From NCBI GenBank assembly GCA_964643955.1, contig CAZXUO010000001.1:171828-235827 (forward strand): a stretch of DNA of 64,000 nucleotides, read 5' to 3'. Below the pieces are notes generated by a model. That model worked only from the letters and a program-made list of their open reading frames with translations, searched no databases and was not told the DNA's origin. The DNA is from an uncultured Candidatus Saccharibacteria bacterium. GTDB taxonomy: Bacteria > Patescibacteriota > Minisyncoccia > Phycocordibacterales > UBA918. This document shows, in pieces, positions 15,947 to 63,953 of the stretch; positions within the stretch are counted from its first letter, which is position 1, and each line of letters begins with the position of its first letter. The translations under genes and the position numbers were made by a program.

Positions 15947-16023
15947 CTTGGTTTGTAGACCCTAATAACCTAGCATTTTTGCGACTTTTTCGGTAGTATA
16001 GCAAGGTCCGAAAGGACTGTTTT

Positions 16024-16095
16024 GGCCCTATCGTCTAACGGTTAGGACGGAGGCTTTTCAAGCCTTAAATCGGGGTTCGATTCCCCGTAGGGTCA
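16024..16095 (+). tRNA. tRNA-Glu (anticodon TTC)
   Basis: D-loop TCGTCTAACGG (typical of Glu). Anticodon loop TTTTCAA. T-arm GGGGTTCGATTCCCC. Confidence 0.85.
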
Positions 16096-16106
16096 TGGGT
16101 TTAGGA

Positions 16107-16146
16107 AAATAGCTCTCAAACGTTTTGTTTGGGAGCTATTTTCGTA
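16107..16146 (+). terminator. Hairpin terminator after tRNA-Glu (aaaatagctc...gagctatttt)
   Basis: 10-bp outer stem with an inner caaac/gtttg stem, followed by a T-run. Confidence 0.55.
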
Positions 16147-16240
16147 GACCCAACTATGATGCCTGGGAGGCAAATCGAACGGCCGGAGGAGACTTGCTTT
16201 CCGAGGCGGGCTCGCGACCGAGCGAAGCGAGAGTTGTGAG

Positions 16241-16259
16241 TCGATTCCCCGTAGGGTCA
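16241..16259 (+). repeat. Perfect 19-bp direct repeat of the tRNA-Glu 3' end (tcgattccccgtagggtca; original at 16077-16095)
   Basis: Exact match. No cloverleaf can be folded around the copy. Confidence 0.8.
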
Positions 16260-16265
16260 CATGAG

Positions 16266-16300
16266 ACAAACAGACACTCCCTGCGGAGTGTCTGTTTGCG
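16266..16300 (+). terminator. Strong terminator hairpin (acaaacagacactcc ctgc ggagtgtctgtttg)
   Basis: 14-bp perfect stem. Confidence 0.7.
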
Positions 16301-16425
16301 TATGTGAAGGCGGAGCCATGTCGCTTCGCGACAGGCGAGCCGAGATCGACAAGTACTTAGTTAAAATCTGCCGGAGGACTGATTTTACTTAGTAACTTGT
16401 GACCACAAGGACAGCTGGAGAAAGC

Positions 16426-48447: not shown

Positions 48448-48482
48448 AATAAAACCGCCGGCCTAAAGGCCGGCGGTTTTTT
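48448..48482 (+). terminator. Terminator (aaaaccgccggcc taaa ggccggcggtttttt)
   Basis: Perfect 11-bp stem. Confidence 0.8.
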
Positions 48483-48483
48483 G

Positions 48484-48502
48484 GTGCTTGGGGCCGGGTT
48501 CG
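48484..48502 (-). repeat. 19-bp direct copy of the tRNA-Phe 3' end (gtgcttggggccgggttcg; original at 48670-48688)
   Basis: Exact repeat lying 168 bp beyond the tRNA 3' end. Confidence 0.8.
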
Positions 48503-48670
48503 GTCACGAATCACTAAGTCTTTTGTTCACTTCGTTCCAAAAGACTAAGTGTTCGCGACCCCACCTTGGCGCTTCATCCCGCAACGCGGGCGCACCTCCG
48601 GCTTTCTCACCCAGCCAGCAATACATGAGAATAAAAAAGGCCTGCTCGAAGCAGGTCTTTTTTATTCTTG

Positions 48671-48743
48671 TGCTTGGGGCCGGGTTCGAACCGGCGACCC
48701 CTTCCTCTTCAGGGAAGTGCTCTACCAACTGAGCTACCCAAGC
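48671..48743 (-). tRNA. tRNA-Phe (anticodon GAA)
   Basis: Reverse complement is GCTTGGGTAGCTCAGTTGGTAGAGC...CTGAAGA...GGTTCGAACCCGGCCCCAAGCA. Confidence 0.85.
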
Positions 48744-49087: not shown

Positions 49088-49217
49088 TATATCAAAGCAG
49101 CTCTCATTTAAGCCAAAAGTTGTTCAGTAGCATTGTTAAAAAGCAGATACTTGACTTTTCTTGAAATTTATAGTTAAATCCTCGACAGGAAACGCACCTA
49201 TACACGGAGGATCTCGC

Positions 49218-49916
49218 GTGGAAACATCACGCATCTATGGGTCGAAGAGCAATCTGCGACCCATCTACGTCATGCATGAGGAGGGTCTGGAGTCATCACA
49301 TCTCCAGGCCGTCCTCGATGGTGTCTCTGCGGTCTGCAGGATCGCGGGCGTCGCCGACAAGGTCGGGATCCACAATCTCGGCGCTTGGAGGGGTTCCGGT
49401 TGGCGCGCGGGCAACACGCTCACCAGCTGGAACAGCATCGACTGGTATCTTGCGCATACGCGCAACGCCAGTCGGAACGACCGCCAGCTCCACGGCGGCC
49501 ATCTCATGCAACTGCTCTACAACGAGCCGTGGCAGGAGCTTGCGCCGCACTACGATATCGTGGTGACCCATTCGGATCTGTACGACGACGGGTGCAACTT
49601 CTGCATCGGTCTCGCGATCCGTGGGCTCGGCACGGTCATCTCGACCAACCGGTTCATGGGGCTGGATGCCCGCGCCGCGCGCGAGTGCATCATCACAGAG
49701 ACAATGCACGAGGTCGGTCACGTCTTCGGGCTCGTTCCCGAAGATCGCACCGACAACGTGGAGATGTCGCTTGGGTTGCACTGCACCAACCGGTGCATCA
49801 TGCGGCAGGGGCTCTCGGTGCCCCATGACTGGGTCACGATTACGAACGATCGGCTTGCGGGACATGAGTTCTGCTCGACCTGTCGTCGTGATCTCCGTCG
49901 TTTCTTCTGTACCTAG
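49218..49916 (+). CDS. Archaemetzincin-like zinc metallopeptidase (M54-like), high-GC
   Basis: HEVGHVFG, then GLHCTNRCIM (GxHCxxxCxM), then CSTC about 23 aa later. Upstream is CNFCIGLAIRGLGTVISTNRF. A GTG start is preceded by GGAGGA. Local GC is about 65% against about 48% for the flanks. Confidence 0.55.
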   Translation: METSRIYGSKSNLRPIYVMHEEGLESSHLQAVLDGVSAVCRIAGVADKVGIHNLGAWRGSGWRAGNTLTSWNSIDWYLAHTRNASRNDRQLHGGHLMQLLYNEPWQELAPHYDIVVTHSDLYDDGCNFCIGLAIRGLGTVISTNRFMGLDARAARECIITETMHEVGHVFGLVPEDRTDNVEMSLGLHCTNRCIMRQGLSVPHDWVTITNDRLAGHEFCSTCRRDLRRFFCT

Positions 49917-49974: not shown

Positions 49975-49996
49975 GTGCCCTCGGCAGGAATCGAAC
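49975..49996 (-). repeat. 22-bp direct copy of the tRNA-Arg 3' end (gtgccctcggcaggaatcgaac; original at 50116-50137)
   Basis: Exact repeat lying 118 bp beyond the tRNA 3' end. Confidence 0.8.
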
Positions 49997-50113
49997 ATTA
50001 CATGTTCAGTACAGGTTGCCGATAATTTTTTCACACGTTCAAAATTATCTGGCAACCTTTTCGATTCCGTGCGACCAACACAAAAAGCCGGACGGGAGTC
50101 CGACTCTTTATGT

Positions 50114-50188
50114 TGGTGCCCTCGGCAGGAATCGAACCTACATCTTTCCCTTAGGACGGGACTGCTCTATCCATTGAGCTACGAAGGC
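50114..50188 (-). tRNA. tRNA-Arg (anticodon CCT), CCA encoded
   Basis: Acceptor GCCTTCG/CGAGGGC with one G-U pair. D-arm GCTCAATGGATAGAGC. Anticodon loop GTCCTAA. T-arm GTAGGTTCGATTCCTGC. The anticodon stem has one mismatch. Confidence 0.7.
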
Positions 50189-57587: not shown

Positions 57588-58042
57588 TTCGATTACTTAT
57601 ACCTCGTAATACATATCAGCATATCATGAACGAACAACAGCCCCCGAAGGGGCTGTTGTTTTCTGGTGCCGATAAGCCGAATTCTGTACGCAGATATACT
57701 CTGCGTGATAGTCATTTATCTGGGATGATTGTTACCAATCACCTCAAGCGGCACTTCTTTTGTAGGCATATGCTGCTACAAAAGACACGGCCTTGCGCGC
57801 AGGTAGGAATTTAGCCGTTTCACCTCGCACGTCGCCATGCAAGCTCATCTCATCATTGCTGATGAGATGCTCTCATCCTTTCGTAGAGAGCGTCTCTGCT
57901 CGCATCCCGAAGATTTCTCTCGATGGGCGTTACCCACTACCGTCCTCCTCTATTGCTAGAGGGCGTGTTCGGACTTTCCTCCCGCACCCATATTAGGTAC
58001 GAGCGACTATCTGGCACAACAATATTATACAATACGAAACAA

Positions 58043-58622: not shown

Positions 58623-61600
58623 CTACGGACACGAGTACGAGAAGGTCGACCCTGCAAACGCTTCGTGTACAAGGTTGTAGAGATTAAGATCGTATTGCTG
58701 CAACTCGGACTTTGTATTTACGTAATTGTGAATACCATTTGGATTTGTTGCTTGGAGATTTGTGTTGAAGTACGACTGCACACCCTCTGCCCAATATTCT
58801 TCGTGATTAGTGCGTGCGTACGTATTTGCCCACAAGCCTGCTGACATTGCTACCTGGTATGCCTGCTGTACTCGACCGACAAATGATCCATCGAGACCGA
58901 GATTGAGAATTGAGTGTGCAAATTCGTGCACAAAGACGCTCTCTCCGCGGTATCGATCAGCGGTATAACAGAGGAGATTTTCTTCAGCTGCTGTTGAGTA
59001 CGGCATAAACGTGGTGCCGCCGAGACCACGTGCGCGGTTGTCCCAATCCGTTCCTGGGAACTGCGAGTAGAGATTGCGGTGCTCTGGAATATCAGTCGTC
59101 ACTTCATTCTTTGACATGATACCCACGCGATGTCCGTTTCCGTTCATCGTGACAAATACATCAGCGCGCTTCTCGAGCATACGTGACGCAAGTCGAGCGG
59201 CTTCAGCAACCGCAGCATTTGGCGTAGCCGAAGATGCGGCAAAACGCATACCCTTATAATCGCAATACTTGTCGTACCACGGATCAAGTCCGAGACCCTG
59301 TGCTTCACTATCACTAATCGTTCTCACCGTACACACTGCTGATGCCTGCGGTGTCTGTGGTTGCGTCGGAGTGGTTGGTGTCGTTGGTTGTGTTGGTACC
59401 GTCGGCTGCGTGACCACGGGTGCAGTTACCTTAAACGAGATCGAGCTACAGTTATTATTTTCGTTTGACTCTCCGACAAGATTGGTCACATCTGCGCAGA
59501 AATAGACGCGATGATCTCCAGCGGTCGGCGACCATACGATAGACACCGGTGCCGAGAGACCTCCTGCGGTAATTCCGGTTACAAGCGGATCAATTCCACC
59601 AATACGACCACTCGAAGATGTACATGATTCATTGTTGAGACAGAACCGTGTGTAGAAGACATCCGCAATACCCCCTGTGTTACGCACATTCGCCATAAAT
59701 GTGATTGGCGTACCTGCAACGAGCGTGTTCGTGAGTCGTGTAAGACCTTCAGGACGAAGTTCTGGCAATACTGGTGCCTGAACGGGTGGTACATAGATTG
59801 GCTGCTGCGGCGTCTGCGGTTGTTGTGGTGCTGATGGCGCTCCTACTCCCGTACCATTTCCTGAAAGATAATTCATGACCGGCGTGTACGCAGGCTTTCG
59901 TGAATCACCTCCCTGACGCACCAGACCAAAACTATTTTCGGTGGTCTCAAAGTCAGCATTACCAATACCCGACCAATCAGAATCACGATATTCGTATACA
60001 AGCACTGGCGAGATACCAACTGCTGAGATTGCCTGCACTGACTTCAAGATAATGTCAGTCTGCTGCGATTCACTTCTTCCTGGACCTTGTGATGCCATTC
60101 CCGTCTCAGCGGTGTAGATACGCTTTTCAGGATAGCGATTCTTTAGTTGGCCAAAGAATGACGGAATCTGATCGAATGCGCGCTGATAGTTTGCGTCAAT
60201 TCCCTGCCCAGGCAGATACACGTCCATACCGATCCAGTCGATTGAAGGACGTACTGCGTCAATAAATGCGAAGAGTCGATTGAGATTTTGTGCGGTCATT
60301 GCCTCAGTGACGCCAGGTGCGCCTGAGATAGACATCGTGATTGGCGCACTGCTGTGAGCGCGGATAGCCGAGCGAGCAACCGCCATCGTCTCACCAAGCT
60401 CTGAGAGATACGACGTGCGCATCGCGAGCGTGTCGGCAGAATCCCAATTTGAGAAGGTGCGATTTGCGAGTGCACCAGGACGGAGATCAGGGAGTGTCCA
60501 ATTTGGCTCCCACAGATGATTACCCGTTCGATAGTCGGTGATGTTTGCTTCGTTGGTCACCTGCCAGAGATCGACATTGCCCGCAAACTGTCGCGCGAGG
60601 TAGTCCATGTGTGTACGCGTGAGTTCAAGATATTCACTATGAGTGAATTGTTGTGAACGCGCATTCAAACGCGGAATAAGGTTGAGCTGTACTTTAAGTC
60701 CTTTTGATTTTGCGTACGCAACGGCTTCCTTGTATCGATCGATGTGCGCTTGATTGAAGGTGATGTTTGTTGGACTTGCGATGTTGAGCATCGTGTCCCA
60801 CTCCTGTACATAGAGACGCACCCACGCAACCTCACCTGCGATATCATCGATTGCGCGCTTGAAGTCAGCAAGTACGGGGCCGTCTGCGGTATTACTTGAG
60901 CCTTGCATCTGTACTGTAAATCCAAATTCTGCGCTACCTCCAACAACCGGAGGAATCACCGGCTCAACAGGAACAACCGGTACTACAGGCACGACAGGAG
61001 GAACGACAGCTCCTGAGACCTCAAGCTCGATTGAAGCGCAGTTATTGTCTCGATTTACCTCAGGCACATCATCGTCTGTGTTTACACAGAAATAAAGTGT
61101 GTGGTCTCCCGCTTCTGCAGTCCATGTGCGCGATACTGGCAACGACGTCTCTCCTGACTGGAGTGGCAAACCTTGTGCAGAGACACGATGACCCGGATTA
61201 AGTCGGCCATTTGCATTCGTCAAACAATTTGGATTGTCGATACAGAAACGCGCCCATGAGTCTGGTGCAGGAGCATTACCGATATTTCGAATGTACGCGA
61301 TAAATGTCACGTACGAACCTGTCGTGATTGGCCCCGTGCCAATACGAGCAACTCCTGTTGGTACAAGATCGTGCTGGCCTATCGGCGTTGGAATGATTGG
61401 TGTTTCAATATCAGGAACTTCTATCGGATACGTAGGGACGACTGGGACCGTCGGCGTCACGGGTACGATCGGCACTTGAGCAGCAGTTCCCTCCACATAC
61501 ACCGGAAATGAGGTGCAGTTGTTGTCTTCGTTTGATTCAGTGACTGCCCTGCTTACATCTGCACAGAAATAAATCGTATGTGTACCTCCGGTCGCAGTCC

Positions 61601-63953
61601 ACGTGGCTGCAACCGGAGTTGAGACGGTGTTTTGACTCATTATTCCGATCGTATGGCTTGAACCGATCGTACCTGCTGAACTATCGAGACACTCGTCGTT
61701 GTCAACGCAAAAACGTGCCTGCGATGTACCTGCGACGCCGCCGAGATTGCGCACATTTGAGAGAAATGTCACGGGATCGCCTGCGCGAATAATGCCTGTG
61801 CCTAGGCGTGTGAAATTGACTGGATTGAGATCAGGCTGGATGGTAGTAACCGGAGGTACTACCTGTGTTTGAGAGACAACCGTAACAGTAACGTGCGCGC
61901 AGTTGTTATTTTCGTTTGATTCACTAAGTGCTCGAGTAACATCGGTACAGAAATATACCGTGTACGTTCCTGCGCTCGAAGGGACCCAGCTACGAGTTAC
62001 GAGGCCATGAGTCTGAGATTGCTGGAGTGATGGGATGCTCTGATCAGTACCAAGACGTCCAGACGTACTTGTCGTGCAGTTTTCATTATCAACGCATATA
62101 CGTGCGAATGATGAATTTGCAACTCCACCAGCATTCCCGACATATCCCATCACACTAATCGGTGTACCGAGGTACACCGCACCCGCAGGTGACGCAGAGA
62201 ATCCAGAAACATAGAGATCGGGCTGGATCGTCGTTACCGGAGGTACGATAGGCTCAGAAACAGTCGCCGCGTTTACACTAAAAGTGAGTGACGTACAGTT
62301 GTTGTCTTCGTTTGATTCAGTCACCTGTGCACTTGGACTTGGATCTGCGCAGAAATAAATCGTGTGCGTACCCGCGGTCGCAGCCCACGTACTTGAAGTC
62401 ATCGTGCGACTCGTTTGATTGCTTCCGAGCGATCCACCTGAAGTCGAGAGTCGATGTCCGTCGCCAAGTCGCGTATTTGCCGAACCATAGCAATCTCCTT
62501 CCCCTCGACTATCGATACAAAAGCGCGCCCACGAGTCAGGGGCTGTTGCATTACCGTAGTTGCGGACTGCAGCAGAAAATACGACCGGCTGCCCCGCAGT
62601 AATTGCTCCCGATGGCGAACGCATGAGGTTGATCGGAATAAGATCCGCACGCAATGTCGGCGCTTCTACCGGCGCATTCACGCTGAAAGAAAGTGACGTA
62701 CAGTTGTTTGAAAGGGATCCTTCTGCTACGCGCGGGTTACCAGTATTGGCACACATATAGACCGTGTGATTGCCTGCGACTGCTGTCCACGTGCGTGCTT
62801 GTGACGCAGAACTATTTGGATCGAGCGCGGGAATAGTCTGATCTGAACCGATGTACCCTGCGTCATTGTTAAGACAATCTGCATTGTTGAGACAGAAACG
62901 CACCCACGGCCCACCCACCGAACGAGTCGCGCCTACGTTGCGCACTGAACCAGAGAAGGTCATGAGCTGGCCAGCGGTTATCGTCCCTGATGGCGAACGC
63001 GTGAGATTGATCGCAGAAAAATCAGCAGGAGTTGCGACAGGTGCAGTGCCTACGCTAAACGTCATTGACGTACAGTTGTTACTTTCGTTTGACTCATTGA
63101 CCTGCGGACTTGGACTTGGGTCTGCACAGAAATAAATCGTGTGCGTGCCTTGCGTTGCGGTCCATGTACGTGATGCAGACGAGGACGTCTGACCTGCGGG
63201 GAGCGGACTTCCCGATTCAGAAAGTCGATGACCAGGATCGAGACGGCCGTTTGTTGACGTGAGACAGCTTGAATTATCGATACAGAAGCGTGCCCATGAG
63301 TCGGGTGCTTCTGCGGTACCTTGGTTGCGCACCGCCGCGGTAAAGGTTACTTCTGTACCCGCAGTCAATGTGCCTGATGGTGAGCGCGAGAGACCAACAG
63401 GAATGAGGTCTGCACGCGCTGAAGAAGACGTATCGGTTGCTGCATTCACGGTAAACGTGAGCGAAGCACAGTTGTTGTTGAGTGTACTTTCTGGTACAGG
63501 AGGGTTACCAGTGTTTACACAAAAGTATGCCGTATGAGTACCGGCAGTCGCATTCCATGCACGCGTGTATGTATCTGACACCTGATCAGCATTGAGTGCC
63601 GTTGTCGACGGATCAAAACCTATGTGACCCGTATCGCTCGTCAAACAATTTGGATTATCGATACAGAAGCGTGCCCATGGTGCGTATGGATTGTCACCAC
63701 CTTGATTGCGTACTGCCGCAGAAAAATAAACCTGCGACCCTTCAGTGATCGTGCCCGAAGGATTGCGTGAGAAGTTTGCAGGCACAAGATCAGGTGTACC
63801 TGATGTCTGCGCCACCATACTTCCCTGCAACAGCTGCACCAAACGCTCAAGAAGCGACACCTGCGTCACGAGTGACGACGATGTCTGTGCGAACGCAGGC
63901 ATTGCGATAGCAAAAGCGAGTGTGAGCGAAAGGATTCCGGTAGTTAATCTCAT
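58623..63953 (-). CDS. Giant secreted surface protein (1776 aa): signal peptide, about 10 CARDB-like repeat domains, a clan GH-A-like glycoside hydrolase domain, further CARDB repeats and a C-terminal HEFAH zincin-like domain
   Basis: The repeated unit reads DL.P.....P.G.I..G..V.F...VRN.G...A.....ARFC.DN..C...(T/S)G..TIYFC.D....V.ES.E.NNC. The GH domain contains WQVTNEAN. The zincin-like motif is VHEFAHSIL. Confidence 0.7.
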   Translation of the reverse strand: MRLTTGILSLTLAFAIAMPAFAQTSSSLVTQVSLLERLVQLLQGSMVAQTSGTPDLVPANFSRNPSGTITEGSQVYFSAAVRNQGGDNPYAPWARFCIDNPNCLTSDTGHIGFDPSTTALNADQVSDTYTRAWNATAGTHTAYFCVNTGNPPVPESTLNNNCASLTFTVNAATDTSSSARADLIPVGLSRSPSGTLTAGTEVTFTAAVRNQGTAEAPDSWARFCIDNSSCLTSTNGRLDPGHRLSESGSPLPAGQTSSSASRTWTATQGTHTIYFCADPSPSPQVNESNESNNCTSMTFSVGTAPVATPADFSAINLTRSPSGTITAGQLMTFSGSVRNVGATRSVGGPWVRFCLNNADCLNNDAGYIGSDQTIPALDPNSSASQARTWTAVAGNHTVYMCANTGNPRVAEGSLSNNCTSLSFSVNAPVEAPTLRADLIPINLMRSPSGAITAGQPVVFSAAVRNYGNATAPDSWARFCIDSRGEGDCYGSANTRLGDGHRLSTSGGSLGSNQTSRTMTSSTWAATAGTHTIYFCADPSPSAQVTESNEDNNCTSLTFSVNAATVSEPIVPPVTTIQPDLYVSGFSASPAGAVYLGTPISVMGYVGNAGGVANSSFARICVDNENCTTSTSGRLGTDQSIPSLQQSQTHGLVTRSWVPSSAGTYTVYFCTDVTRALSESNENNNCAHVTVTVVSQTQVVPPVTTIQPDLNPVNFTRLGTGIIRAGDPVTFLSNVRNLGGVAGTSQARFCVDNDECLDSSAGTIGSSHTIGIMSQNTVSTPVAATWTATGGTHTIYFCADVSRAVTESNEDNNCTSFPVYVEGTAAQVPIVPVTPTVPVVPTYPIEVPDIETPIIPTPIGQHDLVPTGVARIGTGPITTGSYVTFIAYIRNIGNAPAPDSWARFCIDNPNCLTNANGRLNPGHRVSAQGLPLQSGETSLPVSRTWTAEAGDHTLYFCVNTDDDVPEVNRDNNCASIELEVSGAVVPPVVPVVPVVPVEPVIPPVVGGSAEFGFTVQMQGSSNTADGPVLADFKRAIDDIAGEVAWVRLYVQEWDTMLNIASPTNITFNQAHIDRYKEAVAYAKSKGLKVQLNLIPRLNARSQQFTHSEYLELTRTHMDYLARQFAGNVDLWQVTNEANITDYRTGNHLWEPNWTLPDLRPGALANRTFSNWDSADTLAMRTSYLSELGETMAVARSAIRAHSSAPITMSISGAPGVTEAMTAQNLNRLFAFIDAVRPSIDWIGMDVYLPGQGIDANYQRAFDQIPSFFGQLKNRYPEKRIYTAETGMASQGPGRSESQQTDIILKSVQAISAVGISPVLVYEYRDSDWSGIGNADFETTENSFGLVRQGGDSRKPAYTPVMNYLSGNGTGVGAPSAPQQPQTPQQPIYVPPVQAPVLPELRPEGLTRLTNTLVAGTPITFMANVRNTGGIADVFYTRFCLNNESCTSSSGRIGGIDPLVTGITAGGLSAPVSIVWSPTAGDHRVYFCADVTNLVGESNENNNCSSISFKVTAPVVTQPTVPTQPTTPTTPTQPQTPQASAVCTVRTISDSEAQGLGLDPWYDKYCDYKGMRFAASSATPNAAVAEAARLASRMLEKRADVFVTMNGNGHRVGIMSKNEVTTDIPEHRNLYSQFPGTDWDNRARGLGGTTFMPYSTAAEENLLCYTADRYRGESVFVHEFAHSILNLGLDGSFVGRVQQAYQVAMSAGLWANTYARTNHEEYWAEGVQSYFNTNLQATNPNGIHNYVNTKSELQQYDLNLYNLVHEAFAGSTFSYSCP

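Follow-up and report, generated by a model that had tools for sequence, protein, structure and literature searches.

The tRNA-Arg(CCT) element

The window (the whole stretch of 64,000 nt that was analysed) has the ordinary housekeeping gene content of a small genome, with TyrRS, ValRS, FtsA/FtsZ, Pth, LepA, MurJ and RNase P RNA (bacterial class A, 57657-58022, minus strand, 134 bits). One very large ORF of 1776 aa is located at 58623-63953 (minus strand). Five tRNA genes were identified in the window, with agreement between ARAGORN and Rfam. The gene of tRNA-Arg(CCT) and the element that follows it comprise these features:

50114-50188, minus strand: intact tRNA-Arg(CCT) with encoded CCA (ARAGORN; Rfam tRNA, 59.7 bits)
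50116-50137, minus strand: proximal copy of the repeat, which is the 3' part of tRNA-Arg (repeat mapping)
50077-50107, minus strand: intrinsic terminator, first part of the insert, AGAGTCGGAC-TCCC-GTCCGGCT plus a T run (sequence)
50060-50076, minus strand: antisense copy of the tRNA-Arg 3' region, 5' strand of the closing helix P1 (minimum-energy fold, z = -5.5)
50014-50057, minus strand: long hairpin P3, 16 bp with a 1-nt bulge, loop GAACGTGTGAA (sequence, fold, covariation)
49993-50013, minus strand: type-B signature (type-B alignment)
50006-50013, minus strand: type-B junction UGUACUGA (sequence)
49993-50007, minus strand: type-B small hairpin GAACA-UGUAA-UGUUC (sequence)
49975-49996, minus strand: distal direct copy (tRNA-Arg positions 52-73), forming the 3' strand of P1 and the att-like far boundary (repeat mapping)

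The 22-mer GTGCCCTCGGCAGGAATCGAAC was found at exactly two sites of the window (50116-50137 and 49975-49996), even at 3 mismatches, and gave 0 matches in 100 dinucleotide shuffles. In the tRNA it spans positions 52-73, beginning in the T-stem and ending at the discriminator plus 1. The 118-nt spacer, which is the insert, contains no ORF. ARAGORN, Rfam, repeat mapping and the shuffles thus confirmed what an earlier note on this DNA had reported, namely tRNA-Arg(CCT) with an exact 22-nt copy 118 nt downstream. The 16-bp hairpin and the terminator described there for the spacer are both present, the former at 50014-50057 (with the 1-nt bulge) and the latter at 50077-50107, directly 3' of the tRNA gene. 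The 22-nt repeat forms the far limit of a small module, and this module is joined to the tRNA-Arg gene at C56 of the T-loop.

Within the antisense segment, GGAATCGAA is the exact complement of TTCGATTCC, with imperfect pairing of the flanking bases. At the distal end, the 3' strand of the UGUAA hairpin continues into the T-loop copy. A second tRNA or a tmRNA was not called at this element by ARAGORN or Rfam. One archaemetzincin-like Peptidase_M54 gene (49161-49916, plus strand) converges on the element; its stretch has a G+C content slightly above that of the surroundings, and its neighbourhood is not kept in relatives.

Sister elements in the window

Two further tRNA genes of the window, tRNA-Phe(GAA) and tRNA-Glu(TTC), are followed by sister elements:

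48670-48743, minus strand: tRNA-Phe(GAA) (ARAGORN, Rfam)
48484-48669, minus strand: type-A sister element after tRNA-Phe(GAA) (covariance model, 94.8 bits)
48630-48666, minus strand: terminator of the Phe element
48606-48621, minus strand: antisense segment of the Phe element
48563-48602, minus strand: P2 of the Phe element
48502-48560, minus strand: P3 of the Phe element
48484-48502, minus strand: distal 19-nt copy of the Phe element, 167 nt downstream of tRNA-Phe
16023-16096, plus strand: tRNA-Glu(TTC) (ARAGORN, Rfam)
16097-16259, plus strand: type-A variant sister element after tRNA-Glu(TTC) (repeat mapping, fold)
16104-16143, plus strand: terminator of the Glu element
16147-16179, plus strand: antisense segment of the Glu element
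16180-16240, plus strand: core of the Glu element
16241-16259, plus strand: distal 19-nt copy of the Glu element, 144 nt downstream of tRNA-Glu
16302-16406, plus strand: second type-A core, in tandem with the Glu element and downstream of it (covariance model R1, 61 bits, E = 1e-12)

The distal copy of the Phe element is followed by CCA and by a second terminator at 48448-48482. The tandem core behind the Glu element has a terminator in front (16265-16299), a closing helix cut down to GTG/CAC and a C(UUCG)G loop in P2. This core is absent from the earlier note. Downstream of tRNA-Val and tRNA-Ser of the window no copy of at least 12 nt of their own 3' part was found; at this cut-off the pattern is therefore present at three of the five tRNAs (Arg, Phe and Glu), as had been stated. 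The three footprints had also been described as near-identical, and this did not hold: the spacers share their architecture, not their sequence, and fall into two subtypes. Inside each spacer there is, in addition, an inverted copy of the tRNA 3' end, overlooked before, which pairs with the downstream repeat. This inverted copy is the key to the anatomy of the elements. At the gathering score, Rfam 15 recognised only tRNA and RNase P in the window, and a search of the three elements at E up to 10 returned nothing meaningful.

Recurrence in related genomes

Relatives of the window's ValRS were found only in metagenome-assembled genomes of Patescibacteria (candidate phyla radiation) of the Paceibacteria type (Kaiserbacteria, Lloydbacteria, Campbellbacteria), with 93% identity for the best match and 77-79% for the next ones. 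The comparison loci (referred to below by L numbers), 80 from species-representative genomes and 80 from metagenomes, had a flank of at most 10 kb each, and the total searched, window included, amounted to 2.1 Mb with 340 tRNA genes. An exact direct copy of at least 14 nt of the tRNA 3' part within 600 nt downstream was used as the criterion. Such a copy was detected at 20 of the 188 tRNAs of the first set, versus 3 upstream, and at 20 of 151 in the second set, again versus 3 upstream. For both sets pooled (160 loci) this makes 40/339 tRNAs with a downstream copy versus 6 with an upstream one, whereas the chance expectation for such downstream copies is about 0.05 cases in all.

The elements were present at genes of tRNA-Phe, -Val, -Glu, -Gly, -Arg and -Ser, and in a diverged form at tRNA-Leu; an element follows about 1 in 5 of the Phe, Arg, Glu, Val and Gly genes in the sample. 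The spacing between repeat and tRNA is narrow (mostly 105-220 nt) and the orientation of the element is always that of the tRNA. In 17 of the 32 distinct elements the repeat starts exactly at the T-loop C56, most of the others starting within one to three bases of it, and in 21 of the 32 it ends at the tRNA end. Five elements have direct repeats that overshoot the tRNA end by 23-47 nt, into trailer and terminator, and reach 43-66 nt in total. These long repeats count against the reading as an insertion module that is favoured below, since they are not predicted by simple att recombination with a foreign element.

Short-motif regex scans were too noisy, and a covariance model was used instead. 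The model of the type-A core (R1) gave 50 matches at E < 1 in the 2.1 Mb, 42 of which lie within 360 nt downstream of a tRNA on the same strand and 5 near locus ends. The type-B signature was found in 11 distinct instances downstream of tRNAs. The suggestion of a systematic family of miniature elements linked to tRNAs, made from the three cases of the window, was supported by their recurrence in two independent sets of related genomes, with the C56 junction and with folded cores. The other outcome that had been envisaged, no enrichment beyond the window and a single segmental duplication within it, was not what was found: the enrichment is strong, and the differences in sequence and subtype between the three spacers led to the rejection of a segmental duplication. 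In Paceibacteria-type Patescibacteria, modules of this kind form a widespread family that is structured and under constraint.

Anatomy of the elements and folded cores

Read in the direction of the tRNA, the order of the parts is terminator, inverted copy of the tRNA 3' end, conserved core and direct copy; at two loci, cargo genes of ~3 kb stand in place of the terminator. The inverted segment is the reverse complement of the T-loop, the 3' strand of the T-stem and the 3' strand of the acceptor. It reaches a perfect reverse complement of 18-21 nt, is exact in L061 even at the G-U pairs of the tRNA's own T-stem, and extends through 7 nt of the trailer in L079, L081 and L091. The exact complement and the trailer bases indicate that this segment was templated in inverted orientation by the 3' end of the gene and is no tRNA 5' half. 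Pairing is predicted between the inverted and the direct copy, by which the core becomes enclosed in a single fold of the tRNA-sense strand. The minimum-energy folds had z-scores of -4.7 to -6.7 for four elements and of -2.1 for the Glu element of the window.

The conserved core measures ~60-110 nt and occurs in two subtypes. Type A (Phe and Glu in the window) forms a three-way junction with P2 and P3, in which P2 contains a GGAG/CGAG tandem-GA internal loop and P3 is a long hairpin with a conserved G-U pair at its base, ending in ...YGUGAC directly before C56. Type B (Arg in the window) consists of one long hairpin, the invariant junction UGUACUGA and a small hairpin with a UGUAA loop. In a MAFFT alignment of ten type-A cores, 90% of the cells pair, and double changes were observed in 14 of 20 pairs, versus 7.2 +/- 1.7 in shuffles (0 of 500 reached 14); sliding the partners, used as control, lowered the pairing to 25-43%. 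For type B, the six aligned elements have compensatory changes in 13 of 19 pairs: GUAC and UGUAA are invariant, the stem of the small hairpin covaries, and the base of the P3 stem covaries between GGUU/AACC and CCUU/AAGG.

Of the two strands, the tRNA-sense strand gave the better fold in 27 of 32 elements; this bias was seen with RNA parameters (p = 1e-5; mean difference of 7.6 kcal/mol) as well as with DNA parameters that exclude G-T pairs (p = 5e-6). Purine-rich loop motifs are one-sided as well (sense versus complement: CGAAG, 19 versus 2; GCGAAGC, 6 versus 0). One small hairpin of conserved sequence, AGCAAACUGCUUUGCU, is located between terminator and inverted copy in L039, L017, L007, L052, L095, L124 and L151. 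It was found at different tRNAs and in different genomes, and often interrupts the inverted copy where acceptor and T-stem meet.

Conservation, turnover and cargo

The core of the Phe element is identical at 98 of 103 positions (95%) between the window and L001, its closest relative, and the terminator at 93%. Third codon positions of the same pair are 58-67% identical in ValRS, PrsW and Hsp20, and 80% in a small neighbouring ORF. Such conservation above that of the third codon positions indicates that the core is constrained or was recently exchanged, and is not a decaying scar. Hence, the proposal of integration followed by decay was not sustained, given this identity and the compensatory changes in the cores. 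The strong conservation of the core fits a host function as well as mobility. The distal copy of the Phe element is identical at 15 of 19 positions in L001, the spacer behind it is 71% identical with indels, and the distal copy has been lost in L079, L005 and L081.

Empty sites exist at the same tRNA in related genomes, and the subtype can switch at one tRNA: the Glu element is of type A in the window and of type B in L002, and the Arg element is of type B in the window and of type A in L082. Tandem modules were observed in the window and in L002, L059, L091 and L151. The modules of L091 (16060-16410, minus strand) are nested, with the second core flanked by an 18-nt direct repeat, TAACTCGTGACCGAGCCT. 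This repeat spans the junction between the first core and the tRNA copy, so that the duplication in L091 is not anchored at C56 and counts against an insertion module. Apart from the orthologous pair of the window and L001, the best pairs of cores are 60-74% identical, the nearest relatives cross tRNA types and genomes, and near-identical copies of an element within one genome were not found. Cores so diverged give no sign of recent transposition or bursts, which also counts against an insertion module.

Two islands with cargo were found, each with a tRNA-Ser gene on one side of the cargo and the inverted copy, core and direct copy on the other. The island at tRNA-Ser(GCT) in L023 (3600-7020, minus strand; 3.3 kb) contains a co-oriented HNH homing endonuclease gene (Pfam HNH_repeat and HNH) and unknown ORFs, and the island at tRNA-Ser(CGA) in L102 (957-3960, plus strand; 2.8 kb) contains four co-oriented unknown ORFs. 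The ORFs of the two islands other than the endonuclease gene have no Pfam match.

A proposed insertion module anchored at the T-loop

The explanation that we favour, with a probability of roughly 0.55, is a site-specific insertion module anchored at the T-loop, in which the working structure would be formed by the folding of inverted copy, core and direct copy together. The module would arrive by site-specific insertion at the T-loop, which is universally conserved in tRNA genes, and would regenerate an intact tRNA gene. Tandem modules would then result when a regenerated site is used again. The functional substrate or product of the insertion would be the closed fold (inverted copy, core and direct copy), which could act as RNA or as single-stranded DNA, the sequence alone fitting either. 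The enzyme would act in trans, since neither the element nor the window was found to encode one.

Among 45 of the 51 largest ORFs of the window there was no Pfam match to an integrase, transposase or other recombinase, and no integrase or recombinase was found in the islands of L023 and L102 or in the element-rich locus L151; this absence counts against the insertion module. An excised or circular form of the element was not seen either. Searches of the IMG/VR viral contigs with three narrow core patterns found no copy of the element: one pattern gave 0 matches, another gave 39, which are conserved phage coding sequence with neither a match to the model nor a tRNA nearby, and the remaining one gave 3 unrelated matches. 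Strain-level relatives were not found in metagenomes, where the best was only 79% identical in ValRS; at this distance the flanks cannot be aligned for a comparison of empty and occupied alleles. A full-text search of the literature found no description of the element family.

The elements are best regarded as tRNA-targeting integrative elements that form a structured family not described previously, and there is a fair chance that a new recombination mechanism underlies them. Going further, one may speculate, as a tentative and rather unlikely proposal, that Patescibacteria have a cassette-type recombination system with an attachment site at T55/C56 of the T-loop and a folded single strand as the mobile partner, either with an integron- or CTXphi-like platform that uses tRNA promoters or RNA-guided, the enzyme being encoded elsewhere. 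Patescibacteria have tiny genomes; to our knowledge few mobile elements have been recognised in them, and their gene gain and loss are poorly understood. A conserved, folded insertion module would provide this large group with a new route of gene capture through one sequence common to all tRNA genes, and could carry cargo without its own recombinase. It would also lead to a candidate recombinase or RNA-protein system with a simple, universal target site. The minimum gain is a new family of structured elements, with two subtypes, for annotation.

Comparison with known systems

The attachment site of P4-type tyrosine integrases is a direct repeat from the T-loop to the tRNA 3' end. As in P4-like islands, the last ~20 nt of the tRNA are directly repeated here at the boundary of the insert (22/22 nt at tRNA-Arg), the insert supplies a replacement 3' end that leaves the tRNA intact, and one tRNA can be occupied in tandem. 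Unlike those islands, the inserts go down to 105-190 bp, no integrase was found even in the 3-kb versions, an inverted att copy and a conserved folded core adjoin the distal repeat, and one core family serves seven or more tRNA species.

The integrated phage CTXphi recombines as a folded single strand with a host recombinase (XerCD at dif). Its order of target, body, inverted copy, ~90-100 nt and direct copy recurs here in more than 30 elements and 2 islands, in which the inverted and direct copies could likewise pair as a forked hairpin that mimics the duplex target, with no integrase in the element. In contrast to CTXphi, the target is the T-loop of a tRNA and not dif, no phage genes were found, and the intervening ~100 nt are themselves conserved and structured; the use of single-stranded DNA is here only presumed.

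The attC cassettes of integrons also recombine as folded single strands. The elements may resemble them as imperfectly palindromic, strand-specifically folded sites of ~60-140 nt that lie 3' of promoterless co-oriented cargo (in the two cargo cases), in the occurrence of empty or tandem cassettes, and in a recombinase located outside the cassette. However, the GTTRRRY/RYYYAAC core of attC is missing: the T-loop GTTCGAT differs at position 4, and the junction motif, GTT|CGA(T/A/G), has C at the first R position of GTTRRRY. Nor is there an intI or attI; the platform is a tRNA gene, and the repeat measures 19-22 nt instead of 7 nt. The likenesses to CTXphi and to integrons are best regarded as functional analogies, membership in either failing on defining sequence features.

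With MITE-like repeats (Correia/NEMIS, REP/BIME) the elements share a size of 100-200 bp, the lack of coding sequence, the formation of hairpins and the presence of several copies per genome. They differ in that the 'terminal inverted repeats' are copies of the target and insertion is at one nucleotide position of the tRNA gene, and also in that the copies are highly diverged and the duplication measures 19-22 nt, up to 66 nt, versus a short fixed length in MITEs. What sets the elements apart from a tRNA-like structure, a tmRNA or a tRNA pseudogene is the 5' strand of the helix, which is truly the reverse complement, T-loop and trailer bases included.

Some other candidates were rejected. A primer-binding site for a tRNA does not agree with the antisense segment, which follows the genomic trailer instead of CCA. 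Analogies with hammerhead, group II intron, IS200/IS605, TnpB-guide and IS91 fail in core motifs, size or logic; a nuclease guide of the TnpB type or the like would cut its own locus, since the target site is regenerated.

Alternative explanations

The main rival to the insertion module is a resident structured non-coding RNA gene tied to tRNA genes, whose core would be transcribed with or after the tRNA and whose repeat would be a part of the RNA, not an insertion scar. Its closing helix would copy the acceptor and T region of the neighbouring tRNA, and it could act in cis or in trans, in trailer processing, in the control of read-through or as a decoy for tRNA-binding proteins. Such a gene would account for the compensatory changes in P2, P3 and P4, for the conserved G-U pair at the base of P3, the tandem-GA internal loop and the C(UUCG)G loop of the second core, for the better folding of the tRNA-sense strand, for an orientation that never departs from that of the tRNA, and for a core 95% identical where third codon positions are at ~60%. 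However, a strong intrinsic terminator separates the tRNA from the core, and no sigma-70-like promoter was found on the element strand. The closing helix can pass the discriminator base and 7 nt of trailer, so that no tRNA-like free NCCA is left, and the distal copy is the least conserved part of the element (15/19 in L001, and lost in three loci). Furthermore, each genome has many divergent, patchy copies and not one conserved gene, and the motifs enriched on the sense strand are typical of stable DNA mini-hairpins (GCGAAGC, 6 versus 0). Taken together, a resident RNA gene is possible, if on balance doubtful.

The reading as decayed scars of integrase-mediated islands or prophages at tRNA genes, with attL and attR left after internal deletion, is largely refuted, and we consider it improbable. 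In its favour, a direct repeat of 19-22 nt that covers the tRNA from T-loop to 3' end is what the att sites of tRNA-integrating elements classically look like, and islands of ~3 kb with the same ends do exist. Decay does not agree, however, with the tight size range over about 30 independent cases, with covarying cores common to unrelated tRNAs and genomes, or with a core better conserved than the adjacent third codon positions; no integrase remnant was found, 3-kb islands included.

Equally improbable is RNA-guided recombination or targeting, in which the core would be a protein-binding scaffold and the antisense and sense segments would guide to both strands of the tRNA gene, like the bridge RNAs of IS110 or the dual-spacer guides of TIGR-Tas. 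The element does match both strands of one target, beside a scaffold with a k-turn-like GA loop, and TIGR-Tas systems, in which both DNA strands are targeted, are present in Patescibacteria (PMC12045711). However, the two 'guides' are mutually complementary and predicted to pair, no promoter is evident, and no Tas, Nop-domain, IS110-type or other effector gene was found nearby. The elements also differ from TIGR-Tas in unit size, array form and gene linkage: they are single units of 100-150 nt, or 2-3 dissimilar units in tandem, and not 36-nt arrays or CRISPR-like guide arrays.

A local rearrangement with no element at all, in which template switching at the terminator hairpin would produce the inverted duplication and slippage the direct copy, agrees with an inverted repeat centred on the terminator that takes in trailer bases and with direct repeats that sometimes include trailer and terminator, but it leaves unexplained both the fixed C56 junction and the homologous core at Phe, Val, Gly, Glu, Arg, Ser and Leu genes, and is very improbable; the shared core refutes it as a complete explanation, leaving it as a possible secondary process, and template switching may keep the inverted copy perfect.

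Other observations at tRNA genes

Direct copies of the tRNA 5' end were observed 70-165 nt upstream of tRNA-Val in L007 (201-276; 24 nt), tRNA-Ser in L023 (6933-7020; 18 nt) and tRNA-Val in L017 (8421-8493; 13 nt). These copies may represent a separate phenomenon of the 5' side.

Behind tRNA-Phe in L136 (15020-15364, minus strand; identical in L137 and L138) lie fragments that resemble a D-arm and an anticodon arm, as well as the type-B motif and 34 nt that copy the T-arm and acceptor end in full. An element may have disrupted a second tRNA-Phe gene at this locus. Two 3' fragments of tRNA-Val lie downstream of tRNA-Val in L150 (2717-2960, plus strand) and differ from the resident gene at paired positions; their resemblance to the tRNA-Val of other lineages suggests a horizontal origin. 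Scaffold gaps of 100 N were present in or beside elements in L009 (after tRNA-Phe 7639) and in L037 (after tRNA-Phe 10398), and the repeats of the elements seem to break metagenome assemblies at tRNA genes.
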